Shown here in pieces: positions 24,722 to 51,658 of a stretch of 64,000 nt of DNA. Source of the stretch: a virus (Duplodnaviria > Heunggongvirae > Uroviricota > Caudoviricetes); the IMG/VR virus record IMGVR_UViG_3300029641_000003, one strand, 5' to 3'. The translations under genes were made by a program, and so were the position numbers. Under the pieces are notes generated by a model, which saw only the letters and a list, made by a program, of their open reading frames with translations, was not told the origin of the DNA and did no database searches. Numbering within the stretch: position 1 is the first letter of the stretch; every line of letters starts with the position of its first letter.

Positions 24722-25156
24722 CTACCCCACGATTCGATATTTCTCTATAGACTCGTCGTAACTTGTGTATACGTATGGCTCTGTATCATCAGCATAAGGC
24801 GCGACTTCCAGAGCATGAACGGGATTGTATACCGCGTCATTTTCCAGGCGATCGCTCGAATACAGATGCCCGGCTAAAACCGTAAGCGCCGGGCGACTCA
24901 TTTTGTAGATCTCTGCCACATCACTATCTACAACTTGTCCAAATGATATGTCGCCGCGCTCCAGCAATAACGTTTTAAGCGCAGGCCACCACGGCCCATA
25001 AAGGTGATAAAGCTGTGGATCTCTTTTCAGCCTTTCCACCATGCCATCCAGATATGCATCCAGAAACGCCTCTTCACTCCTGCCATTGAGCGCCTGCGGC
25101 AAAATGTCCTCAAGGTAGGATTCCGTCGGTTTTACAGTGTCAATTAATGTCGTCAT
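24722..25156 (-). CDS. hypothetical protein
   Basis: 144-aa ORF immediately after darB. Confidence 0.5.
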   Translation of the reverse strand: MTTLIDTVKPTESYLEDILPQALNGRSEEAFLDAYLDGMVERLKRDPQLYHLYGPWWPALKTLLLERGDISFGQVVDSDVAEIYKMSRPALTVLAGHLYSSDRLENDAVYNPVHALEVAPYADDTEPYVYTSYDESIEKYRIVG

Positions 25157-25192
25157 TCAAATTCGGCCCCGGATGGGGCCGCTCCTTATCTG

Positions 25193-28100
25193 TTAGGCCG
25201 CATCGGCGATTATTTTACGCAGTTCATCTACCGAGTAACGCGTAGATACCATCCATGCCGGACGGTCAAAGTTCACATCAGCAACCGGGTTTGCTTCAAA
25301 ATTCCAGAAACGCCCGCCAATCTTCTTAATCGCGTCTTTGGCGTTTCGTATTGTCGAGGAACCAGGTTGGTCGGCAATGAGATAAACCGCGCCAACGTCC
25401 TCGCTGACGCTCCACCAGCGCCCGCGAACACGCGCCTTAGCGCGAATCGGCTTATCATTAACCACAATGATATAGTCATCATTCGCCGCTTCATCAGCTC
25501 TGGCTTCAGCCACTGCCGCCTGCTCTTCTCTTTTGCTTTCAGCCTGTTCAAGCCTTTCCGCGATCTCTGATTCGGTGGCCCCGCCGTTTTTCAGCGATAC
25601 ATAGTCTTGCCACGTAGCTGATTTGAGCGCATCCGGCAACTCATTCACATAGTCACCGTCTTTCAACTCACGGGCGCGGCGGGTAGCCATTTCTACCAGG
25701 CGATTAACAGAAACAGCATCAGCAAAATCGTCCTTACTAATTTTTTCATCAAATGCATTGATGACAGCCCCCACCTTAATCCACTGTGCTGCCGGTGATT
25801 CCAGGGGGTTATCAGCCTGGACTATGGCGAGTTTCGCTCCATCTACCCCATTATTCGCCAGCTGTTCCAGTGCCGCCCATCCATCTGCATCACTGAGTGA
25901 TTTATATTGCTCAAACAATGCATCGCGCCAGGCCACCAGCGCAGAACGTGTTTTTTCGATCTTCGTCTTAATTTTCGCGATCTTGACCTGATTAAACATC
26001 CGTTCAATATCATCGATATTGCTAAAGGCTTTCATCCTGCCCTGGAATAAACGGTATGCCAGCACGGTCCTCCAGAATGATTCCAGACCTTCTCCGGACG
26101 GTTTGCGGAACAAGCTAAGAATATCTTCAGAAGTGACTTTATTAAGCGAACGACCTGACAGACCACGCCCAGCCATCCAGTTTTCGAACTCCTGGGCAAC
26201 ATCATCCATCGTTGCCTGTGCGCCCCATGCCTGCATTCCCTGGATGTAATCATACCCATACAATGCCTGGAGGAATCCCTCACCGTCCACGATATTCAGC
26301 GGGTTATCACTGGCTTGTATTTTTGCCACTTCACGCTTCAGCGCCTCATCGTTGCCATCTGGATATATCCATCGTTCAGGTGCTATATCCGATGCTCGCC
26401 CGATTTTTTGGCCTATCACGCCATCATAGGCCGATGACAGCGCGATCTGACCATCATCTGTGCGATATGCCCAGTATTTAATAGCTGACCCACCGCCCCA
26501 TGCATTACCAGGTTTACCAGCAATAACATTCATTACCCCATTGCGAATAGCATCATAGAACTGATCGCGAGTAAGTATTGTTGATAGCTGGTGGCACTGA
26601 ACACCACGCGCAGCCGTTGCGCGCGATTCAGCTACCCCCTCTTCAAAAGTTACCGCTTCAATCACAGAGTCAAACGGCAATGTAACGATTGACCCCGGTG
26701 ATCGAGCGTAACGACTTGCTCTATCCAGCCAGGCGATACGGCAGAGGTATTGTGCTTTTTCACCGTCAATTTTTTCCACCCGGACAATCGCTGTTGTTTC
26801 GCGATCATCAATGACTGCACGGTAATAACTACCTTTATGCAACAGGATATTCTTGTCAGTGCGCATATATTCCTGTGGGTTCTGAATAACATCGATACTG
26901 ATATCCAGCACACCAGACTTAATAGCGCGCTCCACATCACCACGAGAGCGTTTCATTATGGTATCCGCGTCTTTTGCCCTGGTGATCGCAAACCGCAGCA
27001 CCCGCGCACGTTTTCTGTAGCTACTCAACTGCTCAAGCGCGAATTTTTGCCCATTCCTGTTCGTACCCGCTTTTATCAGGTCGTCAAGATTTCGCTGGTA
27101 ATACTCTATCTGTTCCATCGCGCTTTTCAGTTCTGTCTCCATCATGCCGATATCTTTTCCAGCGGCGTTTGCCGCTTTCAGGTAGATATCGAGAGCATTG
27201 TTGGCCTCGCGCTGTGCTTTCAGTTTCAGACGTTCTTCACGCTCTTGCGCCTGGCGAGCCATGATTGCGCGGCGTTCTTCCGGGTTTGCCGCCAGCATAA
27301 TGGCGCGTTCATCAGCATCATCCGCATCACCATTGGCGATCTCTGACATGTCGGAGGTCATCACCATCTTGATCCAGTCTTTCTTACGTTTCAGCGTATC
27401 CAGACGGAAGTCGTCGAATGTGCCTTTGCCACAATAGTAGTGAACATTGACCTTCTCTTGCGGTGAACCTACGCGCGCACCGCGCCCATTTCGTTGGTCG
27501 ATACTGGCTGGTGTCCAGGGTAGTGTCAGGTGGTGGATATCGGTTGTCCCGATATGCAGGTTAATACCTACTTCAGCCTTCTTGTTACAGATAATGATGC
27601 GCGTGCGCCCTTCGTTATAGTCGGCGGCAATGCCTTCCATACCCTCAAGGCCAGCATCATTTTTAGCTGAGAGATAATCCTCATATTGGGCAAGTTTGCT
27701 GTAGTAGGTTTCCCATGCCCCTTCTTTGTATTCACCGTTTTTATTCGGAGTAGGTTCAGTCGGCTTATTCACCTTCTTCAGCTTGATGCCGCCAGCCTGG
27801 CTAACGGTCGTCGCATTGATAATGCCTATCTCCTGCTCCGGCATTTGCAGTGCACTGGCGATAATACGGCGCAGCTTCTGGTGCTGGGCTTTTTCATCAA
27901 TGAAGACAATTTGTTTACCGTTCTTCAGACCTTCACGAAGGTTTTCGATCAGCGCGGCATACTTCGGCGGGATGGGGTGTGATACCTGCTGCAGATCAAT
28001 CCCGGCGGCAGCAATGGCCTTCAGTATTTCAGCTTCCAGTTCAATGCTGGCGCGTATTTCAACATGCACCGGATGTTCACTAAAGGTGGTCTTCACTACC

Positions 28101-31100
28101 TTGCTGGTACGTGTATTGACCAGTCCACCAGCGCCGTCTTCTTCGACCTCGTCTGCATCATCTGCCACTTTACCGCCAGCTACTTTTGGCAGGGCATCAG
28201 CAATAGCTTTTACCTTGTCTGCAAGCTCAACGGGGAACTGGAATGTAATCGCACTGGCATACAGATCCGGATCTATAGCAACCTTATCCATGTCGCGGAT
28301 GATGGAGAAGATGAAATCATCCGGTTTTTCGTTTGTGATATGCCCGTTTTCATCAACCGTCAGCGCATCTTTACTACTTAACTCCTGTGCACGCTTACGA
28401 AGTTCTTCATAAGCAGCCTCCTGCTCCCCTGTCATCGGGATCTGCAAGGTATTCTCGACAATATCAGGGATTTTAACCGTCGCCCCGACGTCCGCAGCAG
28501 TCTTCAGAGTAGTCCAGCGATGGAAAATACCACGCAGGCCATCAAGGTTCTGGAAGCCAACCAGCCCCTGCTTCTCTTCCACTTCCCCGGAAATTTTCTG
28601 GACCTGAACTGTGGCTGTTTTACCAAACACACGAACGAAATCATCAGGCGTAATGATGCCCATGCGCATCCACTCTTCCTGCGGAATGACAGTAGACAGC
28701 ATGTTGAAGGCATCAATCGGACTGTTCACCAGCGGTGTTGCCGTCAGCATGACTACACCACGCCCGTTGTTGCGTTTCATCATGTACGCAGCTTTTACAG
28801 CCATGTCGCGGGCCATCTTGGATACTGCCGGGTTAGGCAAATATGCCAGTTGTCCCGCTTCACGCCCGGCATTAAAGGAGTTGCGGTAGTTATGCCCCTC
28901 GTCGGCAATCACGCTATCGAAGTTCATATCCTCAAAGTACGGGATATTCTGCTTCTTCGTTGTACCGGTATTCGCGGCCTGATCCTTAATCTTGTTCTTC
29001 TTCTGCGCATCACGGTGTTTACCAGACGCCAGGTCAAGACGCCCCATTTCCACAGCATTAAAGACAGCTTGCTGTGAGTTCTCCTCGATGGTTTTTTCTC
29101 GTAGCGGGATAGACGCGAATTGTTCTTTTGTCATGATGACCGTTCGCCAATTTGACGACGGGATCATGTTCATGCGCTGAACGATAACGGCGCTGGCGGA
29201 CTCTTTCACAACATTTCTGGTAAGAGGCTGCCCGTTACTGTCGAGGCGGGGTTCGCCATTTTCATCAAGCACCGGCGCGGTCAGAATATTGCCGTCTTCA
29301 TCACGAACCTCATCCAGACCGATAAACATCATATTGGCGAAGGCATCAGCACTGTAGAAGCTCTGTGCCTCGTGATACCAGTTCTGATAAACCGCCTTCG
29401 GAACAACAATACACGTGCGTTTAGTGCGACCTGTTTCGAAGTTATACGCCTCAAGCGCAAGCGCAGTCGTGGTTTTACCCAGCCCGGTACCAAATCCCAT
29501 GATGCCGCGCCCATCTTCTGACAAGCGACGAACTTCTTCATTCTGATAAGTCAGAGGAATGCGCTTTCCACTAATCCCTTCCAGGCCAAGCGGTGCGTTA
29601 GAGTGCGTAAACGGAATGAAGCCATTGAATGCGTCGTTATAGTCACGGGCTATCTGATCCGCCTGCGGGTGGGTGCGTAACCAGTCGTTAAAACTAACTT
29701 CCAGTTGAGCAATTTTATCCAGGTACTCGTTAGCGTTCTGCCCACGCGGTTTAACACCGTTCAGGTAGTTTTCTAACTGGTTCAGGAAGCCGTCTTTATT
29801 GTTGGCCTTCTTGAACTCATTCCCGTTTTTGCCGTTTACGGTTCGTAGTTGATAGCCGGTAAATACCCCGTCCTTACCTTCGTAATCGTCCGGAGATACC
29901 AGAATGCCATCGACGACCTTCAGATCAGGTTCAGTGTACTTAAACTCGTCATAGCCCTGCTCTGCCAGGAACTCTTTTATCAAGCGGCGATCCAGCCAGC
30001 GGGCGTTCAGATTAACGGTGACTTTATTTAGTGGCGTGAAAATGCGTTTCTCTTCGATTTTCGCCAACTGACGCTCAAAGTTCGCTTTCTGCTCACCTGT
30101 TGACGCATCACGCCAACCCACCAGCAATGTTGTTTTGGTTGCAATATCGCCGCTGGTGGCGCGGTCCATCGGCAGCAGGCAGCCATACCCATCAATAGCG
30201 ATATCATCAAATTTCGCCAGGTATTCAAGGGCCGCGTCGTCGTCCTCTGGCAGTTCACCAGCAAACGCCTCACGAAAGTCGCCCAGCGTTATAGGATTAA
30301 GGGCTACATCACTGAAAAGATGTGCTATCACTTGTTCAGGACGTGTAAAGTCAATACCGGCAGCACCATCCGTTACATCAAGTCGCCCTGCCAGAAGGTC
30401 AGAAGTGGAACCATCCTGTTTCACATTGCCAGTGAACGTCATCCAGTTTTTAGCGCCAGCTTCTGCAAGCCCATTCAGCTTAATCGCGTGCGGTGGTCCA
30501 TACTTCGCAACTTCTGCTGCCGCCAGGCGGGATGCATCTGCCAGTTTGTCATCAACGTTCACCCCCAGGTTACGCAAATCAAGTGCCTTGTTGATCAACT
30601 GCCCTATCAACGCACCGCGCATAACGCGCTCCCTGTCTTTTTCTCGCTGTTTGCCAGCAAAGCGAATCATTGCTGCCACTTCATCACTGACAACCGATGG
30701 ATAGTCGGACGCGATCGCCGATATCTGGTCCCATGACAAAGCCAGAATCCCGTTTGTTGACTGGAACGCGATCTGCAGATCGCCAAACGTCGAAACACCA
30801 TATCGACTTACATCAAGCGCGGAGGATTTGGTTGTCGTGTCCTTAACCCATTTCAGACCATCAAACTCATGCCAGATACCGCCTACAAGGCGTTTATCGC
30901 CCACTTTCGCGCCCTGCCATGCCTGAGTAGTTACGCCGAGCAAATCCCAATTGATGCGACTATCAAAGCGACGAGATAGCGCGGTTTTCATCGACTCATT
31001 GGATACACGACCGTCTTTTTTCACCACCAGGGTATTGCGGAAGCTGGTGCGTTCCATGTCGCCGTAAACAAATCGCTTCCCTTCGGTTGTAAACCATTTC

Positions 31101-32041
31101 CCTTTGAGGAAGGTATCCCAAAGGACGTTTGCCGATTTGAGCGTTGCATCATCCGTGTCGGGGATCATCTCCAGGAAGGTTTCCGGGTGTTTACGCAATA
31201 CCCATACGTCCACCACCGTATCTGTACCGGATTCGCTGAACGTACCAGAAGGCATACGATGCGCGCCCAAAAATTCCGCTTTACGGCTGACTTTATCGCG
31301 CAATTTTTTGTATTTCGTACCATCGGTCATGCCATTCGGCACCACCAATACAATTAGTCCACCAGGCTTAACCTTGTCGATTGTGCGCAGCACAAAGTAA
31401 TTGCCAACGTTCTTCTCGTTTGCATATGCCGGATCAAGCCCGGCGACACCGGAACGCCCTTCACCAAACGGTACGTTACCAACAGCGTGATCATACATTG
31501 CGTCTTTCGCCGCCAGCGCCTCAAACGCCCCGATATTCACATCGTCTTCCGGGTGCAAAAGCTGGTTTATTCGACCGGAAATCGGAGACAGTTCGGCGCT
31601 GGTCATTATCATGCCCTGCCGTTTTGTCTCCTGGAAAATACCTGTGCCCGCTGATGGTTCCAGTACGTGCCCGCCATCAATACCGTAGTCAGCAAACAGA
31701 TCCCATATACCTTCAGCCATAAACTGTGGCGTGTAGTATTCGTATTGGCTGCCCTCACCATCTGTCAGGCCGCCTTCACCGGTATACCCGGCAAGAATCT
31801 GACGTTGTTCGTCAGTTAATTTCGCCCCATCGAAGCCGGGCGGAAGGGAATTAAGAAGATTTACTGCGGCGTTGTTTGCTGCCCGGCGTGTTTTCTGAAT
31901 ACTGACGCCATCGACTTTCTTAACGCCAAAGGTCACTACAGCTCGCGGTTTATGCAACCGACTAACAATTTCAATCAGCGCCCCAATGCTGGTGGCCTGG
32001 CTAATTGAATCAATTATTTTGTCCAAAGGAAGCCCCCTCAA
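25193..32041 (-). CDS. darB: DarB-like antirestriction protein (N6-adenine methyltransferase + helicase)
   Basis: 2282 aa; MTase motifs VLEPSAGTGIF and NVPFG; helicase Walker A GFGTGLGKTTTAL and DEGH box VIADEGHNYRN; size matches P1 DarB. Confidence 0.9.
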   Translation of the reverse strand: MRGLPLDKIIDSISQATSIGALIEIVSRLHKPRAVVTFGVKKVDGVSIQKTRRAANNAAVNLLNSLPPGFDGAKLTDEQRQILAGYTGEGGLTDGEGSQYEYYTPQFMAEGIWDLFADYGIDGGHVLEPSAGTGIFQETKRQGMIMTSAELSPISGRINQLLHPEDDVNIGAFEALAAKDAMYDHAVGNVPFGEGRSGVAGLDPAYANEKNVGNYFVLRTIDKVKPGGLIVLVVPNGMTDGTKYKKLRDKVSRKAEFLGAHRMPSGTFSESGTDTVVDVWVLRKHPETFLEMIPDTDDATLKSANVLWDTFLKGKWFTTEGKRFVYGDMERTSFRNTLVVKKDGRVSNESMKTALSRRFDSRINWDLLGVTTQAWQGAKVGDKRLVGGIWHEFDGLKWVKDTTTKSSALDVSRYGVSTFGDLQIAFQSTNGILALSWDQISAIASDYPSVVSDEVAAMIRFAGKQREKDRERVMRGALIGQLINKALDLRNLGVNVDDKLADASRLAAAEVAKYGPPHAIKLNGLAEAGAKNWMTFTGNVKQDGSTSDLLAGRLDVTDGAAGIDFTRPEQVIAHLFSDVALNPITLGDFREAFAGELPEDDDAALEYLAKFDDIAIDGYGCLLPMDRATSGDIATKTTLLVGWRDASTGEQKANFERQLAKIEEKRIFTPLNKVTVNLNARWLDRRLIKEFLAEQGYDEFKYTEPDLKVVDGILVSPDDYEGKDGVFTGYQLRTVNGKNGNEFKKANNKDGFLNQLENYLNGVKPRGQNANEYLDKIAQLEVSFNDWLRTHPQADQIARDYNDAFNGFIPFTHSNAPLGLEGISGKRIPLTYQNEEVRRLSEDGRGIMGFGTGLGKTTTALALEAYNFETGRTKRTCIVVPKAVYQNWYHEAQSFYSADAFANMMFIGLDEVRDEDGNILTAPVLDENGEPRLDSNGQPLTRNVVKESASAVIVQRMNMIPSSNWRTVIMTKEQFASIPLREKTIEENSQQAVFNAVEMGRLDLASGKHRDAQKKNKIKDQAANTGTTKKQNIPYFEDMNFDSVIADEGHNYRNSFNAGREAGQLAYLPNPAVSKMARDMAVKAAYMMKRNNGRGVVMLTATPLVNSPIDAFNMLSTVIPQEEWMRMGIITPDDFVRVFGKTATVQVQKISGEVEEKQGLVGFQNLDGLRGIFHRWTTLKTAADVGATVKIPDIVENTLQIPMTGEQEAAYEELRKRAQELSSKDALTVDENGHITNEKPDDFIFSIIRDMDKVAIDPDLYASAITFQFPVELADKVKAIADALPKVAGGKVADDADEVEEDGAGGLVNTRTSKVVKTTFSEHPVHVEIRASIELEAEILKAIAAAGIDLQQVSHPIPPKYAALIENLREGLKNGKQIVFIDEKAQHQKLRRIIASALQMPEQEIGIINATTVSQAGGIKLKKVNKPTEPTPNKNGEYKEGAWETYYSKLAQYEDYLSAKNDAGLEGMEGIAADYNEGRTRIIICNKKAEVGINLHIGTTDIHHLTLPWTPASIDQRNGRGARVGSPQEKVNVHYYCGKGTFDDFRLDTLKRKKDWIKMVMTSDMSEIANGDADDADERAIMLAANPEERRAIMARQAQEREERLKLKAQREANNALDIYLKAANAAGKDIGMMETELKSAMEQIEYYQRNLDDLIKAGTNRNGQKFALEQLSSYRKRARVLRFAITRAKDADTIMKRSRGDVERAIKSGVLDISIDVIQNPQEYMRTDKNILLHKGSYYRAVIDDRETTAIVRVEKIDGEKAQYLCRIAWLDRASRYARSPGSIVTLPFDSVIEAVTFEEGVAESRATAARGVQCHQLSTILTRDQFYDAIRNGVMNVIAGKPGNAWGGGSAIKYWAYRTDDGQIALSSAYDGVIGQKIGRASDIAPERWIYPDGNDEALKREVAKIQASDNPLNIVDGEGFLQALYGYDYIQGMQAWGAQATMDDVAQEFENWMAGRGLSGRSLNKVTSEDILSLFRKPSGEGLESFWRTVLAYRLFQGRMKAFSNIDDIERMFNQVKIAKIKTKIEKTRSALVAWRDALFEQYKSLSDADGWAALEQLANNGVDGAKLAIVQADNPLESPAAQWIKVGAVINAFDEKISKDDFADAVSVNRLVEMATRRARELKDGDYVNELPDALKSATWQDYVSLKNGGATESEIAERLEQAESKREEQAAVAEARADEAANDDYIIVVNDKPIRAKARVRGRWWSVSEDVGAVYLIADQPGSSTIRNAKDAIKKIGGRFWNFEANPVADVNFDRPAWMVSTRYSVDELRKIIADAA

Positions 32042-40934: not shown

Positions 40935-42880
40935 ACGCCCCCTTGTTGTATCTCTGCCAGAATGTTGATCAGGTGATCGGCTGCCGCACCAACAAGTGAC
41001 TCGTTCTCATCATATCGACCTGCGTTGATAAGAACATTAGCTGCCTCCTGAATGCGATCAAACTCCGCTCTAATCACCGTCAAATCACGGGACGTAAACT
41101 GCAACGGCACGGATTTCAGATATTCCAGCGCATTGTCCGCCTCCTGATCAGCCTCACTAACTACTGGCCCATCTGAACCTGTATCAGACTCTTTGGGGGA
41201 TTCAGGTTCAGACTCAGGTTCTGGTTCTGGTACTGCTTCCGGTGCCTGATCTAATGTCTGTTCAGCTTCGACTACTTCTGATTGATTCTGAAGCGCGTCA
41301 TAGATATCCATTATAAAAAGGTTCTCCCCATCTCCAAGTGGATAAGCGACGTTAGGAAATGCTTTGCGGAAGAGGATTTTTATCTGCGCCTTAAAGGTTT
41401 TCAAGTCGCTTCCAAACAGATCAACATAGCCATCAATATGGTTCGACATACTGGACGCAACCAATTCGCCTGCAATCTCTTTCAATTCATCGTCACCAGG
41501 GAGATATAGCAACTCGTACTGACTGACTTCTTCGTCTGTCAGTTTGCGGTCATACGTAATGATTCCGTGACGAGCATATTCGTAATACGGATCAGCCTGA
41601 TCAGGACGGTCAAGTACAGCTTTATTTCCTTCAGGAACCGCACCAACACCCGCCGGGCGAGATTGGAGCGCATAGCGATATTTACCAACCTCCAGGGGAT
41701 CAGGACGTGATGCTGGTTGTGGCTCCTGTTCAGGCTGCGGCTGATCAGTTGGCTCAGGCTGGCCCGGCAACACATCCACTTTGTATTGATCAGCATTATG
41801 TTCACGATAGGCTTTAAGTAATTTGGTTGCAGCGTCCGCTGAACTCCCACCTTTAACAGCACTGACATCAATACTGAAATTGCCTTCTGGTGCCTCAATC
41901 GTGACAAAGCTATCACTGCCTGACGTGACATACTTAACTACAGCACCATTATCCAGCGTTGTTTGGCCTTCTGTAGCAAGATTATGTTTTATGTGTCGCA
42001 GTTGATCATTGAAGGCACGCTCTTTAGTTCCTTGGCTCTTAGCTGACAATAAATTATCGCGTTTAGCCTGCAATTCCGCGTTAAGGGCTTTTTGTGCGTC
42101 TAATTTATTCTGCATATCATTGAGTGTTGAACGTTTCTCTGCCAGCCCCCGCTGTGCGTCTTCAACCTGCTCAATCAGCACAGAACGTTCTTCTGCCAGC
42201 TTGTCGGCTTCATTGAGATACCCCTCAATATCAGCCTTCATTTTGTCCTGGCGCTCCTTTGATTTTTTGAATTTTGCACTGTTACGCTCAATGAGGTTAG
42301 AAAGCGCCTGACACACCTGGCTCAGAGATACATCACGCCCACCGATTGGCGCAACAACATGCGTAACGTTTCTTTTGTTAAGAAGAAACTGAAACGCAAC
42401 CAGCTCGTCATCCCCTTTAATTCTTGTGCCGTCTGCGGTTGGAGAATGGAAAATTATGCTTGTCGTTTGTCCATCGGTTAGAGGTATTTGTGCTGTCACA
42501 ACAGGGATATTAGCAACCCGGCGCACGCGCCCAATGATTGCCCCACCGATACTATTACGTCCGTCCTCATATTCACCTGCCTCATCCGTACCCGCAGCAA
42601 TGTCAGTGCCATTCAGGCCGCGATTAAGCGCCCGGACAAATGCTCGCATTGTTTGCGCTAACCGCAATTTTGTTGTGGTTATAGCTTCGAACATTGCCTC
42701 ATTGGTAGTTACCAAAATTTCGTTGCCCATATAGGCCAGCTCGATATCTTCCAGCGTCGCAGGCTCGATAAGTAAATCATCCTCGGTGATATCTTCCGCC
42801 ACCCAACGATTAGGCGTATATCCAGTGAGCGTATCTGCAAAAGTGGACTGGATATTTATTCGAATAGGTTTCTTTATCAT
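40928..42880 (-). CDS. darA: DarA-like internal head protein
   Basis: 650 aa, coiled-coil middle, Pro/Glu-rich linkers; lydA/lydB-like genes upstream as in P1 darA operon. Confidence 0.6.
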   Translation of the reverse strand: MIKKPIRINIQSTFADTLTGYTPNRWVAEDITEDDLLIEPATLEDIELAYMGNEILVTTNEAMFEAITTTKLRLAQTMRAFVRALNRGLNGTDIAAGTDEAGEYEDGRNSIGGAIIGRVRRVANIPVVTAQIPLTDGQTTSIIFHSPTADGTRIKGDDELVAFQFLLNKRNVTHVVAPIGGRDVSLSQVCQALSNLIERNSAKFKKSKERQDKMKADIEGYLNEADKLAEERSVLIEQVEDAQRGLAEKRSTLNDMQNKLDAQKALNAELQAKRDNLLSAKSQGTKERAFNDQLRHIKHNLATEGQTTLDNGAVVKYVTSGSDSFVTIEAPEGNFSIDVSAVKGGSSADAATKLLKAYREHNADQYKVDVLPGQPEPTDQPQPEQEPQPASRPDPLEVGKYRYALQSRPAGVGAVPEGNKAVLDRPDQADPYYEYARHGIITYDRKLTDEEVSQYELLYLPGDDELKEIAGELVASSMSNHIDGYVDLFGSDLKTFKAQIKILFRKAFPNVAYPLGDGENLFIMDIYDALQNQSEVVEAEQTLDQAPEAVPEPEPESEPESPKESDTGSDGPVVSEADQEADNALEYLKSVPLQFTSRDLTVIRAEFDRIQEAANVLINAGRYDENESLVGAAADHLINILAEIQQGGVW

Positions 42881-43518
42881 GCATCTTCCTCCAGGCGCGC
42901 TATTTCTTCTTTCAATACGCGAGTTTTCGCCAGTTCCTGCGCCATCTCGGTTCTAATGATTTCAGTTTCTCTTGTTGCGCGGTCTGAATTACCTTGCACC
43001 TGATTTAATTTTTCTTTGGCCCTTTCAATATCCTCGCGGATCGCATCGCGAGATTCCTTTGCCTCTGCTAGTTTCTGCGCATTGGACTTAACGCCTTTTA
43101 TTTTCTTATTCCCATCATCAATATCTTTCGCCGCACGAGCTAACTTACGCGCCAATGATTTCTGAAATGATGATGCGCCTTTATTAAATAAAGCAGCCAG
43201 TGATTGCCCTAAAGCCGTCAGCGTTTTAACAGGCTTGAAAGGAACAATTTTTCCGTTCAGTTTTACACCAGAAATATCACCAGTATCATTAACCTGAACG
43301 TCCATCGTCTGCTCATCGATTCCGATAAGGGTAAACGTGCGCGTCATGATCCCGTCTTTCTTCCTGCCATTACTGGCGGGGATCACCCTCGCTATCTTGT
43401 AGCCTCCTTTACCGATTTCTTTGACGAGTTTTGCCAGCCCCTTTTCGTTTAACTCATCATAATTAAGAAGAACATAATTAGACTTATTTGACATTCCAGT
43501 CTCCTTCACACTTTTCAA
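42877..43518 (-). CDS. hypothetical protein (Hdf position)
   Basis: 213-aa ORF overlapping darA start. Confidence 0.4.
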   Translation of the reverse strand: MKSVKETGMSNKSNYVLLNYDELNEKGLAKLVKEIGKGGYKIARVIPASNGRKKDGIMTRTFTLIGIDEQTMDVQVNDTGDISGVKLNGKIVPFKPVKTLTALGQSLAALFNKGASSFQKSLARKLARAAKDIDDGNKKIKGVKSNAQKLAEAKESRDAIREDIERAKEKLNQVQGNSDRATRETEIIRTEMAQELAKTRVLKEEIARLEEDA

Positions 43519-43930
43519 TCATAAACTGGCGTTCTATGCAGTCATTGATAGGGAAAATGCGATAAAGCGGATTCAGGCGGCAATTACCGTTAGTTAATGT
43601 GACCTTTAGATCCCACTTCGCTGGCTCAAGATATTTCGTGTCGATGAGCAAATATTCTTCTCTCTCACCGCGTTTTGATGCGTCAACTGGTCTTGTTTTC
43701 CCCGAAATAACCACAGATGGATTTTTCAAATCCTGCAACCAATATTCGATTTGTGCATTGCTTACCCAGCTTCGCTTAACGCGAAGCGACACAGGAAACG
43801 CTATAGCAGACTCTTTCACTACAGCTTCGCCAATGCTCAAAATATCAACACTCTTGCGACGAAATAAGAAACGGTCAATAACGGCAACAAATGCCATGAT
43901 AAAAATGAAATAATTTCCAAAGTCACCCAT
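43484..43930 (-). CDS. LydB-like protein (putative antiholin)
   Basis: 148 aa with N-terminal hydrophobic segment; follows holin-like gene. Confidence 0.4.
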   Translation of the reverse strand: MGDFGNYFIFIMAFVAVIDRFLFRRKSVDILSIGEAVVKESAIAFPVSLRVKRSWVSNAQIEYWLQDLKNPSVVISGKTRPVDASKRGEREEYLLIDTKYLEPAKWDLKVTLTNGNCRLNPLYRIFPINDCIERQFMIEKCEGDWNVK

Positions 43931-44256
43931 TACTTCTCTCCACCTTTTCCCCCACTCGCTATTACGCTTAAGAGATTCAAGACGTTACTAGCTCTGGACT
44001 TCAAGCCCTGTAAAATTTCACTTCCGTTGTTACTGGCAATCAGAACAACGCAGTAAATGATGCCTTCCGGCCATTCATAGCTATCAGCCACCCAAAACCC
44101 CGCAAGCCCGGCAGTTACCGCAGTAAACAATTCACTCGCGAGGTTGAGCAGTGACGCAGATATGCGCCCGTCTCTAACTCCGAGAAGGAATACGCCGGTT
44201 CCACTTAGCAGGGATGTTATGACTGCTACAGCCAGATTTTCATAATCTGCAAACAT
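43930..44256 (-). CDS. holin-like membrane protein (LydA position)
   Basis: 108 aa with three predicted transmembrane helices. Confidence 0.5.
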   Translation of the reverse strand: MFADYENLAVAVITSLLSGTGVFLLGVRDGRISASLLNLASELFTAVTAGLAGFWVADSYEWPEGIIYCVVLIASNNGSEILQGLKSRASNVLNLLSVIASGGKGGEK

Positions 44257-44268
44257 ACCCCTCCAGAA

Positions 44269-44556
44269 ATGACGTTTAACGCCGCTTCAACTTATCCAGT
44301 TTGTTATTTCCCGACTAAATGCCGTTCACACAAAATGGATGTATATGATGGCCCGGTGCTTCGTAAGCCTCGTCACTCAGAGCGTGGAGAATGCCAAATT
44401 CGCGTATCAACAAATGGTCCAAACACGGCTTTAAAGAGAAATACGCTTGAATGCGCAAGATGTGAGCTGATTCTTGAAGACAAAATGATGACATGTGAGT
44501 CTTCACAAGCGTCATTCAGTGAATATAATGCCACCCTCTCAGATACCACTAACTGA
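44269..44556 (+). CDS. possible small Cys-containing protein
   Basis: ORF (likely ATG-start MDVYDG...) ending 12 nt before a strong plus-strand terminator. Confidence 0.25.
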   Translation: MTFNAASTYPVCYFPTKCRSHKMDVYDGPVLRKPRHSERGECQIRVSTNGPNTALKRNTLECARCELILEDKMMTCESSQASFSEYNATLSDTTN

Positions 44557-44567
44557 GTATTCATTTT

Positions 44568-44601
44568 GCCCGCCGTCATTGACTGGACGGCGGCTTTTTT
44601 G
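44568..44601 (+). terminator. rho-independent terminator
   Basis: GCCCGCCGTC-ATTGACTG-GACGGCGGC followed by TTTTTT. Confidence 0.7.
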
Positions 44602-44646
44602 TACCAAAGGATTGTATTACTAAAAAAGGTCACAAAAGCACTCACT

Positions 44647-44670
44647 AATAAATCCCTCAACAAAAGAGGG
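44647..44670 (-). terminator. rho-independent terminator after tail-fibre genes
   Basis: Minus-strand transcript reads CCCTC-TTTTGTT-GAGGG-ATTTATT, 46 nt after the U-like stop. Confidence 0.5.
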
Positions 44671-44715
44671 CTTGAAATATCAAAAAAGCAGTGCTGATTG
44701 GATTGTTATGATTGT

Positions 44716-45138
44716 TTATGCAGGCATCTCAGGCCATGAGATATCTGCATCAACAGAAGTGTCAACTCTATTAAGAAGAACTCTATACCTCTTTAACTTT
44801 GTCAACATTTCTATTTCCTCATCAGTGGCAATATCCATATCAACAGCATCCTGAAGCGTTGATATTTTTATGCTCACATCATTGATAAGACTACTTTTGG
44901 TGTTTTCAGCAATGCTGACTCTATCCTCTAAGCTCATAGGTTGTGGGTCAGATAACATTGGATAACCATCGCCATTTGCAATTATTATTTTCCCATTGCC
45001 ATACCCTGATAACAATTCATCATATAAGTCATCAGGTATATGTACAGTATCGGACGGCCATGAACCGTTTTTATCGTAATCTTCTTTTAGTCTGTCGTCG
45101 TAGAAACCACCAGTCTCTTTGCTGTAATACTTTGCCAT
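44716..45138 (-). CDS. tail fibre assembly protein (U-like)
   Basis: 140 aa; MAKYYSKETGGFYDD N-terminus typical of Tfa; immediately downstream of tail fibre gene. Confidence 0.75.
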   Translation of the reverse strand: MAKYYSKETGGFYDDRLKEDYDKNGSWPSDTVHIPDDLYDELLSGYGNGKIIIANGDGYPMLSDPQPMSLEDRVSIAENTKSSLINDVSIKISTLQDAVDMDIATDEEIEMLTKLKRYRVLLNRVDTSVDADISWPEMPA

Positions 45139-45169
45139 TTAAGCACCTTCATTCTAATTAACTATATTT

Positions 45170-48100
45170 TTAATAACCATAAGCAACATACTGTGCATAT
45201 ATTTTATCAGTGGAGCTACTTTTCACTGTAAAACCAGTGACTGAGTGGTTATATGTATAAAGAATTGAATTGACAGCATTCCCGCTGTGAGGCGAAATCA
45301 CAACTACCGCACACGCCTCAGGAAAAGTAGTCGGAAAGTTAACCACGCTTCCTGGTGTTAAATTTGTTATAAACCCCCACTGCATCATCACCTTAGTTGA
45401 TGTATCCTTATGCCATCCATGAATGTTGGCATATGCAGTGTTTTTAGCCTGATATTTCGTGTTGAAATTACTATAGTTACCAGGGGTAATCTGACCAGCG
45501 GCAGATAAATTCCCCATAACCCTTACATGACCATCAGCACGTCCTAATTCTACGCGACCATCACCGCCATCTATCTTTAATGGAGTGTAAACGACATCAC
45601 CATTAACATTTTGCCCAGTGGTTGATATCTGGAAACTATATCCAGTATTAGTTATTAGGAATCCATAGTTATTATTATAAGTTAGCCGTATAGCATTTTG
45701 GCTGCTGGATATAATTTCACCGGTAACAGTACCACCTGTTGTTGGTAACGCACCAACATGACTTGCCGTTAATGTGATATCTGCGGAACCATCAAAAGCC
45801 ACGCCACTTATTTTCCTGGCTGTTTTTAACTTTGTCGCTGTAGCTGCATTACCAGTTGTATTTTGATTCCCGGCAATATTGACGCCCGGAAGATTGATGT
45901 TGGCGGTGCCATCAAACGAAACCCCGCCTATTGTGCGTGCTGTTTGCAGTTTTGTTGCAGTTGCGGCATTGCCAGTAGTGCTCTGATTACCTGTTTTATT
46001 CACGCCCGGCAGGTCGATATTTGCGGTGCCATTAAATGAAACACCACCAATAGTTCTTGCCGTTTGTAATTTCGTTGCAGACGCCGCGTTTCCGGTTGTG
46101 TTCTGGTTGCCTGTTGTATTTACACCAGGGATGGAATCCTTCGATGTGTAGACCTGCGCCCAATCAGACCATGCTGCATCTGTTGAATCTCTGCGAGAGC
46201 GAATAAAAGCCGGAGCATGAGCGCCACTTGTACCGCTCCAGCCTATGAACAACTCGCCTTCACCAACTGCCGTTGCGCCCTTAAGATGAAGCACATTCCC
46301 GTAAGCAGAAGGATAGCCGTTGTTGTACGCCTCATACATCTGCAATCCAGCAGCAGCACCTTGCGTTGTACCGGTGAGCGCAGTAACACGCCCTCTGGAC
46401 GTAATTGTTGGTATCGAAATGTTCGCAGAACCATCAAAATTAACACCGTTGATTTTGCGGGCTGTTTGCAGTTTTGTAGCGGTTGCAGCATTACCTGTTG
46501 TGTTCTGGTTACCGGCAATGTTCACACCCGGCAGGTTGATATTGGCGCTGCCATCAAATGACACTCCGCCGATTGTGCGTGCCGTCTGAAGTTTCGTTGC
46601 GGTTGCAGCATTGCCGGTAGTGCTCTGATTACCTGTTTTATTCACGCCTGGCAGGTCGATATTGGCGCTGCCATCAAATGACACCCCGCCGATTGTGCGT
46701 GCCGTCTTGAGCTTTGTCGCAGTATCTGCGTTTCCCGTCAAATTACCTGTAATGCCACCACTAACTGTTACCCCATTACCGATCGACACCAACCCAGTTC
46801 TTAAATTTATAGCAAAAGGTCTTAATGGGCCGATGTCACCATTTTCTCCCTCACCTTCATTTGTCGGGACAAGATGCAGAGATTCCTCGGATCTCCTGAA
46901 GATAAGGCCAAAGGACTGATTAAATATTCGAAGGGCATTTAATGTGCCAATTTTTAGTTCACCCCCCATTGTATCGCCAGAACGCTGAACTGCGTTACCA
47001 GCTTGAGAAGCAATATCCGTTAAGCCAAGATCTTCTGGGGTTAGAGTAATATCGGCAGACCCATCAAATGCCACACCGTTAATCTTTCTGGCTGTTTTTA
47101 ATTTCGTCGCAGTATCGGCGTTCCCGGTCAGCGTACCAGTGATCCCCGCGCTGAAAGTCTGGCGCGCACTCCAGGTATTAGCCGTGCTCAACAGGGGGAT
47201 CTTTTCTCCGCTGGTTCCGAGTTCTCTTAAACCAAGGTATTGGATAACAGCCAGTGTGCTTGTTTTAGCAAGAATATCGCGACCGACTGACGTTAAATCA
47301 GTCTGGGCTACAGTGTCTGTTCCGGTAAAGTACGGTAATTTATTTGCTCCCGTCGCCAGGCCTGCGAGCGCGGTTAAGGTTGCGTCGAGAGGCTGCTTAC
47401 CTGCCAGTGCATTTGTCATTGTAGTCGCAAAGTTCGGGTCATTGCCCAGTGCTGCAGCAAGCTCATTCAGGGTATCAAGAGCTTCTGGTGATGAGCCGAC
47501 CAATGCAGAAATAGCGGCACGAACATAAGCGGTTGTTGCAATCTGAGTGTTGTTCGTACCTTGTGACGCCGTAGGAGCTGTTGGAACCCCCGTAAATGCC
47601 GGGCTTAATAACGGCGCTTTAAGAGCTAAAGCATCATTAATCGTCTGGCTAAACTGGGGATCATTGTTTATTGCATCTGCAATTTTTTTCAGCGTATCCA
47701 ACGCTGAAGGAGAACCATCAATAAGGGCGGTTATAGCGGCCTGAACAAAGGCAGCGTTTGCGATTTGTGTACTGTTTGTACCTTGTTCCGGAGTTGGAGA
47801 TGTAGGGATACCTATAAATTCCGGGCTATCAACCGGAGCTTTAAGTTTATTTAACGTGCTGATAGCAAGGGGGGTTGCAGCTTTATATTCTTCGTCACTA
47901 TCCAAAGCACTGGAGAACTCAACACCTACAGCACGATTAGCGCGATATTTAGTGCTAATCATATCTGCGGTAACGGCTTGAGCATTGTCAGGCACGATCA
48001 CTCGGCATATCTCAATCTGGTTAGATGCTATGCCCTCATCAACGAGAGCTATAATTCTCGCTGCGCTAATATCCGATGAACTATCTACCTGGCTGGTTTT

Positions 48101-48439
48101 CACTCCATGTTCGTAATTAGCTTCAAGAACGATGATTGTCGTTACACCTGCTTCTACAGGAACAACAACATCACTGACTTGCTGCACGGATATCTGACAT
48201 TTACCCACGTCAACTGAAGCCGCCCCTCTTCCCTCTGTTTTCTCGGATGTAATCCGCACAAACAGGCCATCCCCTGGCACAGGTTCAAACCCACAGTACA
48301 CACCGGGCAGAACGATATTTTTCATCTTCCTGTTTAGAGCTTCGGTGCTATACAGCTCAAAGTATTGCATGTCTGCAATTAGTGGCGCGGAAATGTCCGA
48401 AGATAAGGTGACAATGTTCTTTACTTTATCTGCGCACAT
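45170..48439 (-). CDS. tail fibre protein (S-like) with internal tandem repeats
   Basis: 1089 aa; repeated ~37-aa units TGNQxTTGNAATATKLQTARTIGGVSFDGSANIxLPGVN; C-terminus ...YAQYVAYGY. Confidence 0.85.
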   Translation of the reverse strand: MCADKVKNIVTLSSDISAPLIADMQYFELYSTEALNRKMKNIVLPGVYCGFEPVPGDGLFVRITSEKTEGRGAASVDVGKCQISVQQVSDVVVPVEAGVTTIIVLEANYEHGVKTSQVDSSSDISAARIIALVDEGIASNQIEICRVIVPDNAQAVTADMISTKYRANRAVGVEFSSALDSDEEYKAATPLAISTLNKLKAPVDSPEFIGIPTSPTPEQGTNSTQIANAAFVQAAITALIDGSPSALDTLKKIADAINNDPQFSQTINDALALKAPLLSPAFTGVPTAPTASQGTNNTQIATTAYVRAAISALVGSSPEALDTLNELAAALGNDPNFATTMTNALAGKQPLDATLTALAGLATGANKLPYFTGTDTVAQTDLTSVGRDILAKTSTLAVIQYLGLRELGTSGEKIPLLSTANTWSARQTFSAGITGTLTGNADTATKLKTARKINGVAFDGSADITLTPEDLGLTDIASQAGNAVQRSGDTMGGELKIGTLNALRIFNQSFGLIFRRSEESLHLVPTNEGEGENGDIGPLRPFAINLRTGLVSIGNGVTVSGGITGNLTGNADTATKLKTARTIGGVSFDGSANIDLPGVNKTGNQSTTGNAATATKLQTARTIGGVSFDGSANINLPGVNIAGNQNTTGNAATATKLQTARKINGVNFDGSANISIPTITSRGRVTALTGTTQGAAAGLQMYEAYNNGYPSAYGNVLHLKGATAVGEGELFIGWSGTSGAHAPAFIRSRRDSTDAAWSDWAQVYTSKDSIPGVNTTGNQNTTGNAASATKLQTARTIGGVSFNGTANIDLPGVNKTGNQSTTGNAATATKLQTARTIGGVSFDGTANINLPGVNIAGNQNTTGNAATATKLKTARKISGVAFDGSADITLTASHVGALPTTGGTVTGEIISSSQNAIRLTYNNNYGFLITNTGYSFQISTTGQNVNGDVVYTPLKIDGGDGRVELGRADGHVRVMGNLSAAGQITPGNYSNFNTKYQAKNTAYANIHGWHKDTSTKVMMQWGFITNLTPGSVVNFPTTFPEACAVVVISPHSGNAVNSILYTYNHSVTGFTVKSSSTDKIYAQYVAYGY

Positions 48440-48441
48440 AA

Positions 48442-48888
48442 TTATCCCTCGACCTGTTCAATGGTCATGAGCAAGCTGTATCGCTTACCTTTGAATAAGG
48501 TGTCCTGTTGAGTACAAACAACCCCAAAAGCCTGATCCTCTGCATCTACGAGAACCAGCGTATTGAAATCGTAAGGTGTATCGTCCGGCATCGTTTCTTG
48601 TGGAAAAGCGGCATTAATCGTAATGACACCATCGAGGCTGGAAAGAATGAGATTGGATTCAGCAAAATGCTGTGCATCACTTAACTTGAAGTCGAGCGGA
48701 ATATCAGAAATAGTCCAGCCACCAGCACTATTTACCGTCACAAGATCGGACTTGCACCAATAAGCCTTTGTCATAACAAAACGCTCACCTCTGCCGATTG
48801 CAGACTCTGCACGGCGAGAGTAGTAGTAAGAAAGGAGTTGCGCCTTGTAAATACTGGAATCGCTTTGGGATTTTAAAGTTTCAGCCAT
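48442..48888 (-). CDS. putative tail fibre-associated protein (R position)
   Basis: 148-aa ORF directly upstream of S-like gene. Confidence 0.4.
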   Translation of the reverse strand: MAETLKSQSDSSIYKAQLLSYYYSRRAESAIGRGERFVMTKAYWCKSDLVTVNSAGGWTISDIPLDFKLSDAQHFAESNLILSSLDGVITINAAFPQETMPDDTPYDFNTLVLVDAEDQAFGVVCTQQDTLFKGKRYSLLMTIEQVEG

Positions 48889-49004
48889 ACGAACATAGCC
48901 CCTTTAACAAGCAATAAATCGAAGGGCAGTATGTTCAGTTTGTGATTTCCAGTGGTCTTTTGTTTTGAGAAATGGCCCCACCCAGGTTGGCGGGGCCTGG
49001 TTTG

Positions 49005-49847
49005 CTAAGGTGCAAAATTATAATCCAGCGCCCAGGCGTCGAGCGGGAGTTCATCGAGATGAAGCACTCTTTCCGTCGTCCGGTCTGGCCTTCCTGCGAA
49101 CTGGATGCCGCCTATTTGAATGATCGTATCGCTAATAGATAGCTCATCGACCATCTCTTGCGTCGTGTACACCCCCTCAATAAAGGACACTTCCGCAGAT
49201 AAGCAATTCAGGATCTCCGCCATTTCCGGCAATGTTGCGCTCAACTGGAAAGAAACACCATCAAACACGATATGCAATGGCAATAGCGGCGCTATAACCG
49301 TATCAAAATCAGCAAGTAGCTTCTGTACAGCAACGTCTCTGTCATCGCTATCATAAGCTCGATACAGCTTATTTTGGTTGACGACAACCAGCCCCCTGGA
49401 TGTCAGGAAAAACTCACCATATTGTGCCTGAGCGGTCGGTATTTCATTTGCGGTCGCGAAGAATGAACCATAGGGATGTTTTTCTGTATCGACTGGCGCA
49501 TACAAGGGTTCCCATGAGACGGGAATTGTGCCAAATTCACGCCAGAACGTTTGCTCTATCGGCCTTACAGTTCCTTTGAAGTGCACCTCATCCAGTCGTT
49601 GAGCTAATAGCATTGGCCTGCGTGTTTTGTCCGTTTCTGTGATAACAAAGAAACGACCATATTCAGCAATGCGAGTGTCCATATCCTCGCTTGCCATTGT
49701 GAAAAACGATTTACGGTTGCTTATTCGCGTGAGAATAGGTTCAACCGATTCATTCCACACGTCCTGAATCGTATCAACAAAGGCAGCCCACAATTTAGAG
49801 TCCTGTTTAAATTGCGTCAGACGCTCTTTTAGCCAGTTATTCTGCAT
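49005..49847 (-). CDS. putative baseplate protein (gene 16 position)
   Basis: 280-aa ORF in conserved structural block; by synteny only. Confidence 0.4.
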   Translation of the reverse strand: MQNNWLKERLTQFKQDSKLWAAFVDTIQDVWNESVEPILTRISNRKSFFTMASEDMDTRIAEYGRFFVITETDKTRRPMLLAQRLDEVHFKGTVRPIEQTFWREFGTIPVSWEPLYAPVDTEKHPYGSFFATANEIPTAQAQYGEFFLTSRGLVVVNQNKLYRAYDSDDRDVAVQKLLADFDTVIAPLLPLHIVFDGVSFQLSATLPEMAEILNCLSAEVSFIEGVYTTQEMVDELSISDTIIQIGGIQFAGRPDRTTERVLHLDELPLDAWALDYNFAP

Positions 49848-49856
49848 TGTGACCTC

Positions 49857-51287
49857 TTACGGATAGGTTATGCTGAACGTTGATGATTCCACGTCCAGAT
49901 AAACAAAATCATTAAAGTACACGGCTTCTTTCATGTTCTGCGTAGCCACGTCATAAGACAGGAACATATCCAGCGATTCGATTACTCGCCAGATATCTTT
50001 CACTTTGACCTGTGCATAACATTGCTGTGAGTCGTCATCACTCTGCAATAGCTGGCTAAATGACATGGAGTCTTTACCGAAGTTCTCCTCCAGTGCCGCT
50101 TTAATTGCAGTTAGCGCGTCATCCACCAGCACACTCTTTTTTACGATACCGGTAAATTTGATGTTGAACGGCTGTTCATTGGTGGCAACGTATTCGAACT
50201 TCTTATTCAGCTCATTAGGGATACTCTCAAGGGCTGATAATATCTCTGTTTTCAGAGCTTCCTGTGTTACGCCGGGCTTGTGCCCACAAAAGAAAATTTT
50301 GTTGATATTACGCACATCAAAGCCCGTGATTTTCTCCTGTAGCGCCTCCCCCCACACGTTAAGCCATGACGTGCCACTGACCACGTTCTGAATGAACTGT
50401 CGGTAATCACCGCCCCAAACAACCTGCTCATCGTAGGCCACATAATACTGCGCCCTGTTTCGGGTTTCCTCGGTAGTTTCCATGCCACCACCGCCAGAAA
50501 TGATCGAATCGGTTTTTACTTCCAGTGATTCGACATACCCGGAGATGTTCCCTGCTGGTTCAAGTTTCTGGCCTTCAGCCAGCGTGTAATCACCGAGGCT
50601 TGCCATAATATCAATGCGTACCTGACTCCCTGCCGCTGGCATCATCCCCATTGATCCATCACCGAAGCGCACGCCGATCTGTTCTGTCGGCTTATAAACC
50701 AACACATAATGTTTACTGTTATCCCTGGACATGCGGAACAGGGGGTTATGTGTCCATTTTTCCTCGACACCATTAGTTATCACGACAACTTCCAGGCTGG
50801 CGACTTCTGCTGTTAACTCACGGGAAAGTAACAGCGTCAAGAATGGTGTTTCTTGCACCACGTCGAACGTTACGCTGACAGCTTCATGCTGTTTTACTTC
50901 TATGCCGGGTACTGTTTCACCAGCAGGGATAACAACACTACTGCTGGTTGCAATTGGTGTCTGGTCACTTGTCAGTAATTCAGCCCCTCCGGGTAGCGTA
51001 ATATCCCTGTCGGTTTTGTTGGTGATGGAAACAGTGCCGTATGACGCATCGACCAAACGACCGACATAGCCACGGTCTTCCGCTGCCGCGAGAATACTTG
51101 CTCTACGCGTCGCGGTGGAAATGAATCCTTCTGTAAGTGCACGGCTTGCAAATGTACGCGCAATATAAACAATCTGCGCGCCAAAAACGGACTGCATTTG
51201 AATAAACTGGCTGTTTACAAAACGCGCCCACCAGGGGTTTTCGTTCAGCTTGGCATTAAACTTGTCCAGTAATTCGGTAATACTCAC
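49857..51287 (-). CDS. putative baseplate protein (BplA position)
   Basis: 476-aa ORF; overlapping start/stop with neighbours. Confidence 0.45.
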   Translation of the reverse strand: MSITELLDKFNAKLNENPWWARFVNSQFIQMQSVFGAQIVYIARTFASRALTEGFISTATRRASILAAAEDRGYVGRLVDASYGTVSITNKTDRDITLPGGAELLTSDQTPIATSSSVVIPAGETVPGIEVKQHEAVSVTFDVVQETPFLTLLLSRELTAEVASLEVVVITNGVEEKWTHNPLFRMSRDNSKHYVLVYKPTEQIGVRFGDGSMGMMPAAGSQVRIDIMASLGDYTLAEGQKLEPAGNISGYVESLEVKTDSIISGGGGMETTEETRNRAQYYVAYDEQVVWGGDYRQFIQNVVSGTSWLNVWGEALQEKITGFDVRNINKIFFCGHKPGVTQEALKTEILSALESIPNELNKKFEYVATNEQPFNIKFTGIVKKSVLVDDALTAIKAALEENFGKDSMSFSQLLQSDDDSQQCYAQVKVKDIWRVIESLDMFLSYDVATQNMKEAVYFNDFVYLDVESSTFSITYP

Positions 51288-51658
51288 GCTGTATCTCCGC
51301 TATCTTTCTGCATAACAACATTCACGGTGCCTCCTTTTGCCTGGAAGCTAATTAGTAACTGGTCTTCAGAGACAGTCGCGCAGCGGATCGCCTGGAGTCC
51401 AAGCCCTGGTAAGTCCTGCTGTAGCTTCGTCATCATTCGCGCTTCAATCGCCACTTCAACAATGTGTGACGTATCAGAACCGAAGGGTTCGTGTTTGAAC
51501 TCCTCCATCGGATTCCCCCATGACGGCAATCCGTAAACGCTGCCATTTGGTGTCCGTAGCCATTCATCGAGTCGGGCTATCCAGGCGTTTGTGTCGCCTT
51601 CAGCGATCACCACCCCGCTCTCGTTTGTCTGAAGGCGGGCATCAATCTCATAAAGCAT
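51284..51658 (-). CDS. putative small baseplate protein (PmgA position)
   Basis: 124-aa ORF between Sit-like and baseplate genes. Confidence 0.4.
   Translation of the reverse strand: MLYEIDARLQTNESGVVIAEGDTNAWIARLDEWLRTPNGSVYGLPSWGNPMEEFKHEPFGSDTSHIVEVAIEARMMTKLQQDLPGLGLQAIRCATVSEDQLLISFQAKGGTVNVVMQKDSGDTA

Follow-up and report, generated by a model that had tools for sequence, protein, structure and literature searches.

A modular tail fibre gene with 40-residue repeat units beside the remnants of a deleted fibre switch in a D6/P1-like phage-plasmid

Can a repeat-rich tail fibre still change once the element that encodes it has no fibre switch? This question is raised by a long open reading frame (ORF) in a stretch of viral DNA of 64,000 nucleotides (nt) from the Caudoviricetes (IMG/VR record IMGVR_UViG_3300029641_000003), referred to as a whole as the window. 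An earlier note, made from the letters alone, had described the ORF as a tail fibre with at least seven near-identical tandem repeats of about 37 amino acids (aa), a substrate for slippage and recombination that could vary fibre length, and without an invertible segment such as that of phage P1. By sequence, the ORF is the long tail fibre gene, S, of an Escherichia coli phage-plasmid of the D6/P1-like type. The explanation that fits the locus best, and which we regard as quite probable, is that of a modular P1-family fibre whose switch was deleted and whose repeat units would serve as joints for recombination.

The identity of the gene was established from homology and from its neighbours. In tblastn, D6 gpS matched the encoded protein with 66% identity across aa 1-603, phrog_454 matched it at 1198 bits, and a public protein (P0021) was 100% identical. 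Megablast against phage records gave matches to P1, P7, D6 and their relatives, D6 being the best. The D6 map runs lydA, cin, cixL, S', U', then U, S (with cixR inside), R, gp16 and bplA, and the window carries a bplA-like gene, gp16, R, S, U, lydA, lydB and darA, the last three as homologues downstream of U; this is the D6 order minus the cin-Sv'-U' block. Since the two orders agree apart from the missing interval between lydA and U, the ORF was assigned to gene S. The tail-fibre assembly family Caudo_TAP (PF02413) covered the full length of U (E = 2.8e-34, 118.5 bits against a cut-off of 22.1), and the precomputed Pfam annotation of an identical public contig listed Phage_P1_Gp16, PF26881 (Phage_P1_tail_fiber_R), Gp53-like_C and Caudo_TAP. 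The matches to D6 gpS, phrog_454 and Gp53-like_C, with R upstream and the chaperone downstream, bear out the assignment to tail fibres that had been made from the letters alone. An NCBIfam search of S, U, R and the cin stub described below gave no match.

The spacer between lydA and U is 459 nt long and holds the remnants of a deletion (Table 1). Compared by blastn with the plasmid NZ_CP159120.1 (L010), window 43900-44483 aligned to L010 679-1226 and window 44476-45200 to L010 5001-5729, and this split alignment implies that about 3.8 kb are absent from the window. The L010 interval that is missing carries a 193-aa serine recombinase, Sv' and U'. At the junction, which shows a short GAAGACAAAA-like microhomology, cin codons about 30-33 are joined to the last codons of U'. 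No intact serine invertase was found in the window, where only cin codons 6-34 survive; this stub was matched by the DNA invertase family phrog_8275 (E = 3.4e-13). Searches by tblastn with D6 Cin, S' and U', a second invertase taken from a relative, and Sv and U of the window itself revealed no further copy and no plus-strand copy in the 64 kb, and only cixR matched when a second cix site was sought in the window at up to 3 mismatches. Because a cin fragment, an orphan cixR, the tail of U' and a terminator remain, the locus can be read as a P1-type switch that decayed through a deletion of about 3.8 kb, with L010 as the probable ancestral state. The claim that the window has neither an invertase nor an inverted fibre C-terminus was therefore correct, but the contrast with the P1 C-segment, as though this were simply a fibre without a switch, overlooked the decayed switch that the cin fragment, the orphan cixR and the U' tail represent.

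Two side observations concern the invertase genes. The cin stub coincides almost exactly with the 72 nt that are annotated in P1 as the Cin inversion enhancer (59 of 72 nt identical); the overlap is probably a coincidence of the deletion endpoint. Besides an old cin stub, L010 1126-2060 contains a further serine recombinase gene, which is complete and lies on the opposite strand; this implies that the inversion module was replaced at least once before it was lost in the lineage of the window.

A search of 5426 complete E. coli genomes found the same deletion junction in 15 of them, in each case on a plasmid of 89-95.5 kb. These plasmids come from several continents, and their sources were humans, dogs, chickens, one wild bird, one monkey and wastewater. 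Neither annotation nor tblastn revealed a serine invertase in NZ_CP114225.1, a complete sister plasmid collinear with the window, the only recombinase being a tyrosine recombinase; the possibility, raised in the earlier note, of an invertase just outside the window did not materialise in this nearest complete relative. The best-supported reading of the junction is that a single deletion would have removed the switch and now marks a successful plasmid lineage.

The repeats were then defined by a motif search, which found in S exactly seven copies of a unit of 40 aa (120 nt) with the consensus tGNqsTtGNAaTATKLqTARtIgGVsFDGsANIxLPGVN. They are arranged 1+3+3, with non-repeat nodules of 90 and 94 aa in between. 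The expected number of seven copies was thus borne out, whereas the unit proved to be 40 and not about 37 aa long and the copies do not form a single tandem array. Tandem Repeats Finder detected both triplets with a period of 120 nt (76% and 84% matches), and the units were also picked up by the repeat finder. Near-identity of their DNA was not upheld: unit pairs were 53-85% identical, the longest exact direct repeat within S was 32 nt, and even the pair of stretches offered as an example agreed in only 100 of 113 nt (88%). In units 3 and 6, all but one of the 40 residues agree, but the DNA differs at 18 nt, which amount to 17 synonymous codon changes and one non-synonymous change. As the DNA differences between units are mostly synonymous, the units appear to be old, and selection would keep the peptide and not the DNA. 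Judged by these comparisons, they are old modules, presumably structural elements of the shaft, with the protein under purifying selection and the DNA diverged. The copies in the window, which are 53-85% identical and match exactly over no more than 32 nt, are poor substrates for slippage, and high-frequency slippage in this S gene is unlikely. Near-identical DNA in head-to-tail order, as expected of slippage-prone repeats, was absent from the window and was found only in some relatives (exact repeats of 167-206 nt).

The 40-aa units gave no match in Pfam even at E <= 10; the sole match of the phage tail fibre repeat family PF03406 in S fell on aa 174-198 and, with 17.5 bits, stayed under the cut-off of 22. 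The units did match many PHROG families of tail fibres in multiple stretches, so that their motif occurs widely in fibres. The Dec protein of phage L was considered as a solved homologue of the repeat block and rejected, as the match was not significant in spite of a shared motif (E = 0.14). A literature search on the unit motif and on variation of repeat number in tail fibres found nothing relevant.

To compare copy number among isolates, S genes were read from 13 complete plasmids that share the junction; in a 14th the gene spans the start of the record, and the 15th was judged from identical match coordinates. Sister plasmids of the same backbone differed by exact multiples of 120 nt (Table 2). 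The middle block held five units in at least nine plasmids, four in NZ_CP098883.1 and three in NZ_CP069647.1 and NZ_CP173593.1; copy number is therefore not invariant. Nearly all alleles share the N-terminus of 431 aa and the tip of 194 aa. The five-unit blocks occurred in three internal patterns (abccd, abcdc and abcde), of which the first two contain the exact repeats of 167-206 nt, and these patterns imply no fewer than two independent duplications, of 120 nt and of 240 nt. Larger modules changed as well. NZ_CP069647.1 differs from the window type by an in-frame deletion of 642 nt, with a switch from left to right register at about nt 1770-1860 of the gene; the crossover corresponds to window 46579-46669 and 45937-46027 and hence to the very pair of stretches that the earlier note had given as its example. 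In NZ_CP173593.1, the 406-aa insert has repeat units on both flanks and matches part of the L010 Sv' cassette with 82.5% identity. The idea that the repeats form a substrate for recombination was thus well founded, in that sister plasmids differ by multiples of 120 nt and the 642-nt deletion crosses over within the pair given as example. Recombination as the mechanism of unit change we infer from these in-register differences.

Based on these results we propose the following course of events. The products of R and the chaperone gene U would help to assemble the long tail fibre encoded by S, whose constant N-terminal part would join the baseplate and whose shaft would alternate 40-residue units with small nodules up to a gp53-like tip. 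The ancestor would have possessed a P1-type invertible segment with a serine invertase, cixL and an inverted Sv'-U' cassette, and the deletion of about 3.8 kb, from the start of cin to the end of U', would have locked the fibre into a single form. Homologous recombination between units, in register, would repeatedly have added or removed single units, pairs and unit-plus-nodule modules. Fibre length and nodule content would then vary among isolates over evolutionary time, with the tip and the chaperone remaining constant.

Table 1. Features of the tail fibre locus; positions refer to the window, and aa numbers to the S protein.
Feature	Position	Strand	Basis
Gene R, tail-fibre attachment/assembly protein, 148 aa, directly upstream of S	48442..48888	-	80% identity to D6 gpR; phrog_2032
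Gene S, long tail fibre, 1089 aa, intact ORF	45170..48439	-	ORF list; tblastn with D6 S; phrog_454
Constant N-terminal part Sc, aa 1-417	47189..48439	-	alignment to D6 S
Two 74-aa b-type repeats within Sc, 41/74 identical	47411-47854	-	repeat finder; P1 labels equivalents b1/b2
Orphan crossover site cixR where Sc meets Sv, codons IQYLGLRE	47225..47244	-	20/20 identical to D6 annotated cixR
Repeat unit 1, solitary, aa 432-471	47027..47146	-	motif search
Nodule A, non-repeat domain, aa 472-561 (90 aa)	46757..47026	-	between unit 1 and units 2-4
Repeat units 2-4, tandem triplet, aa 562-681	46397..46756	-	motif search; Tandem Repeats Finder
Nodule B, aa 682-775 (94 aa), common to P1 and D6 Sv	46115..46396	-	alignment with D6 S and S'; P1 S sequence
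Repeat units 5-7, tandem triplet, aa 776-895	45755..46114	-	motif search; Tandem Repeats Finder
Distal part, aa 896-1089 (194 aa): nodule C, aa 896-985, and gp53-like C-terminal domain, aa 1017-1089	45173..45754	-	Pfam, PDB matches
Gene U, tail-fibre assembly chaperone, 140 aa, directly downstream of S	44716..45138	-	PF02413 Caudo_TAP; phrog_188
Terminator-like hairpin downstream of U	44654..44670	-	hairpin
Orphan terminator from lost convergent Sv'-U' operon	44570..44593	+	region aligns with U'/U intergenic of L010
Last ~24 nt of former U' gene, right edge of deletion	44476..44499	+	blastn against L010; U' ends at L010 5024
5' fragment of cin invertase gene, 29 codons (6-34)	44398..44484	+	tblastn with D6 Cin aa 6-34, 76% identity
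lydA holin, left neighbour of deletion scar as in D6	43930..44256	-	94% identity to D6 LydA

Table 2. Architecture of S alleles with the shared junction; R stands for one unit and brackets give non-repeat residues.
Source	Architecture	Length
This window	[431]R[90]R3[94]R3[194]	1089 aa
At least nine plasmids	[431]R[90]R5[94]R3[194]	1169 aa
NZ_CP069647.1 (L003)	[431]R[90]R3[194]	875 aa
NZ_CP098883.1 (L007)	[431]R[90]R4[214]R[94]R2[194]	1343 aa
NZ_CP173593.1 (L006)	[431]R[406]R3[94]R3[194]	1405 aa

Several points weigh against this explanation or against parts of it. Neither NCBIfam nor solved structures offered a counterpart of the 40-aa units, in line with the negative Pfam search. An AlphaFold2 monomer model of aa 432-1089, built on an alignment of 24 sequences, was unusable (predicted local distance difference test, pLDDT, 42; predicted template modelling score, pTM, 0.19). 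The direction of unit change (deletion or duplication) is presumed, and an effect of unit number on fibre length, host range or adsorption is likewise a prediction from sequence. The remaining points concern the assembly. Window 42170-51439 is identical (9270/9270 nt) to a metagenome contig of 87,078 bp in the ENA (ERZ27256433 k119_38641), whose name presumably follows the k-mer style of a short-read metagenome assembler. The window is therefore probably derived from a short-read assembly, in which exact repeats longer than the k-mer may be collapsed. Relative to the CP104667/CP114225 allele it lacks 240 nt, which are bounded by an exact repeat of 206 nt, just as would be expected of a collapsed repeat, and the true molecule could have nine units, the count in the window being collapsed. 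Among the best 120 of 7997 database homologues, protein lengths of 1049, 1089, 1129 and 1209 aa made up a ladder, which also included 875, 915 and 995 aa; the checked sources of the 1089- and 1129-aa forms were draft assemblies, and collapse may inflate the ladder.

The alternative that follows from these assembly data is that the count in the window and part of the 40-aa ladder are artefacts, the real middle block having five units of which an exact repeat was collapsed. The nearest complete plasmids, with flanks 99.3% identical to the window, have two extra units bounded by a 206-nt exact repeat, longer than k = 119, the 1089-aa form occurred in none of the 13 S genes read from complete plasmids, the 1129-aa form corresponds to the abccd type minus one c unit, and the name of the contig points the same way. 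Nevertheless, the contig is 87 kb long and passes through the region without interruption, where an unresolved loop would usually be expected to break it, and the 1089-aa form was found in 29 protein clusters from many samples. We consider the artefact unlikely on balance, if well worth keeping in mind. Complete assemblies independently show three, four and five units as well as module changes, so the variation itself is real regardless. The ladder of homologue lengths, which had been considered as proof of copy-number variation, was downgraded, as the sampled sources are drafts; the evidence for real length variation comes from the complete plasmids and not from the ladder. A practical warning follows: in short-read assemblies, fibre genes that carry repeats of this kind may appear shorter than they are.

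A stronger version of the recombination proposal is that the units may also serve as universal in-register joints, through which nodules flanked by units, including former Sv' material, would have been exchanged, duplicated and deleted after the invertase was lost. We give this version little credence; if it were true, fibre length and nodule content would be a hypervariable trait at the population level that replaces programmed inversion. Still less probable is the mechanism implied by the earlier note, a contingency locus at which frequent slippage or unequal exchange within a single lineage changes fibre length at a high rate. The units are indeed tandem and in frame within the triplets, relatives carry exact duplications of 120 or 240 nt, and such a duplication, once formed, is a good substrate for slippage. 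However, the low DNA identity and short exact matches of the units in the window do not fit, their mostly synonymous differences indicate long independent divergence, and the same 1169-aa protein (WP_223370791.1) was found in four plasmids from the UK, Pakistan and Egypt (two), which points to stability over epidemiological time. Finally, that the fibre is still switchable by an invertase from outside the window, from the host or from a co-resident element, acting on cixR, is highly improbable: cixR is perfectly preserved and the cin stub overlaps the P1-annotated inversion enhancer, but there is one cix site and no inverted alternative cassette in the 64 kb, the part of NZ_CP114225.1 beyond the window has no serine recombinase, only the tyrosine recombinase, and cixR lies within a block near-identical in protein to D6 (aa ~297-452), so that its preservation needs no selection for recombination.

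Of the non-repeat parts of S, nodule A is absent from D6 and from L010, and nodule B on its own gave no match in Pfam. Nodule A shows a weak relationship to nodule C (BLASTP, E = 2e-6), and the T4 gp34 trimerisation domain (PF21446, Gp34_trimer) matched both nodules below threshold (nodule C, 26.0 bits against a cut-off of 27). PDB entry 5yvq, the S protein of phage Mu, matched aa 904-968, and nodule C is accordingly Mu-S-like. Towards the C-terminus, PDB entry 6cxb (R1 pyocin fibre) matched aa 998-1049, and PF21882 (Gp53-like_C) matched aa 1017-1089 with 37.1 bits, above its cut-off of 24.9. This gp53-like domain is presumed, from these matches, to be the receptor-binding tip.

Among known systems, gene S with Cin and the C-segment of P1 (also P7 and D6) is among the closest. 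The window shares with it the order R-S-U beside the lydA-darA operon, a homologous Sc with 74-aa b-type repeats, cix at the same codons, and the core of repeat, nodule B and repeat in Sv. It differs in lacking a functional cin, cixL and an inverted Sv'-U' cassette, in its seven units compared with only two in P1 and D6, which flank nodule B, in the additional nodules A and C, and in the gp53-like tip; its U is only 31% identical to that of D6. L010 has the same U (94% DNA identity), the same fibre tip, the cin stub beside lydA and, in S as well as in Sv', repeat units that belong to this family. In contrast to the window it keeps the 193-aa serine recombinase (on the opposite strand), the Sv' cassette and U', and its S is 1000 aa long with 4+3 units and without nodule A. 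Mu S/U and the R-type pyocin fibres resemble the window in the matches of the distal sequence and in a chaperone of the same family downstream; the matches are short and limited to the distal nodule and tip, and the 40-aa units have no counterpart there. In the adenovirus fibre, the length of a trimeric shaft is set by the number of short repeats and differs between types, and a terminal knob binds the receptor. That fibre is an unrelated protein of an unrelated virus with a 15-residue repeat, and we mention it as an analogy, with no homology implied.

Decay of the switch has been described before. In the P1-like plasmids pSvP1, pTZ20_1P and pJIE250-3, cin is truncated or the C-segment lost (Venturini et al. 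2019, PMC6906374), and the authors infer a loss of fibre switching where only the N-terminal catalytic part of the invertase is left. The likeness to the window lies in the decayed tail-fibre switch with an N-terminal part of the invertase remaining. Those plasmids have backbones of the P1/P7 type, most of which insertion sequences have rearranged and many of which are defective, whereas the window is D6-like, its deletion is clean with a short microhomology, its morphogenesis genes are intact, and the form is common to 15 complete plasmids. D6-like plasmids of Salmonella, on the other hand, retain the switch (PMC6799933).

Some observations were made outside the fibre genes. Window 1-3166, 7501-7547 and 10150-10288 gave no megablast alignment to NZ_CP114225.1, which is 94-99% identical elsewhere; these segments reflect differences in accessory genes close to where that plasmid carries its Phd/Doc and HumD region. 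Four tRNA genes lie at window 19455-20639 (Met/Ile2-type CAT, Ser-TGA, Thr-TGT and Asn-GTT), and at the corresponding position NZ_CP114225.1 has annotated tRNAs for Ile, Ser, Thr, Tyr and Arg; since window 19684-20563 does not align to that plasmid, the tRNA set differs between close relatives. In NZ_CP114225.1 15840-29322, collinear with window ~18400-32000, the annotation includes a Thoeris anti-defence protein of the Tad2 family and an SNF2-related protein of 6.8 kb. Two candidate features were rejected: a late-promoter motif (AACAAACTGRA) shared by R and lydA was dropped, as there was one exact match in the window, and inverted-repeat pairs flanking U-S-R (20-26 nt, 75-77% complementary) were judged to be chance matches.

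Mosaic tail fibres are textbook knowledge. The gene family, the switch and its decay were already known, and S is a structurally ordinary modular fibre of the P1 family; less familiar is the clean series of 40-residue steps on a constant tip. E. coli commonly harbours phage-plasmids of the P1/D6 group, and the tail fibre determines which cells they can enter; antibiotic-resistance genes have been reported on P1-like phage-plasmids. The lineage described here has lost its two-state fibre switch and is nevertheless widespread, and its fibre would still change by recombination of modules at the 40-residue units. If the number of units alters adsorption, for example through the reach across surface polysaccharide, these alleles would provide a natural series relating shaft length to host range, and the locus would also be a scaffold for fibre engineering.

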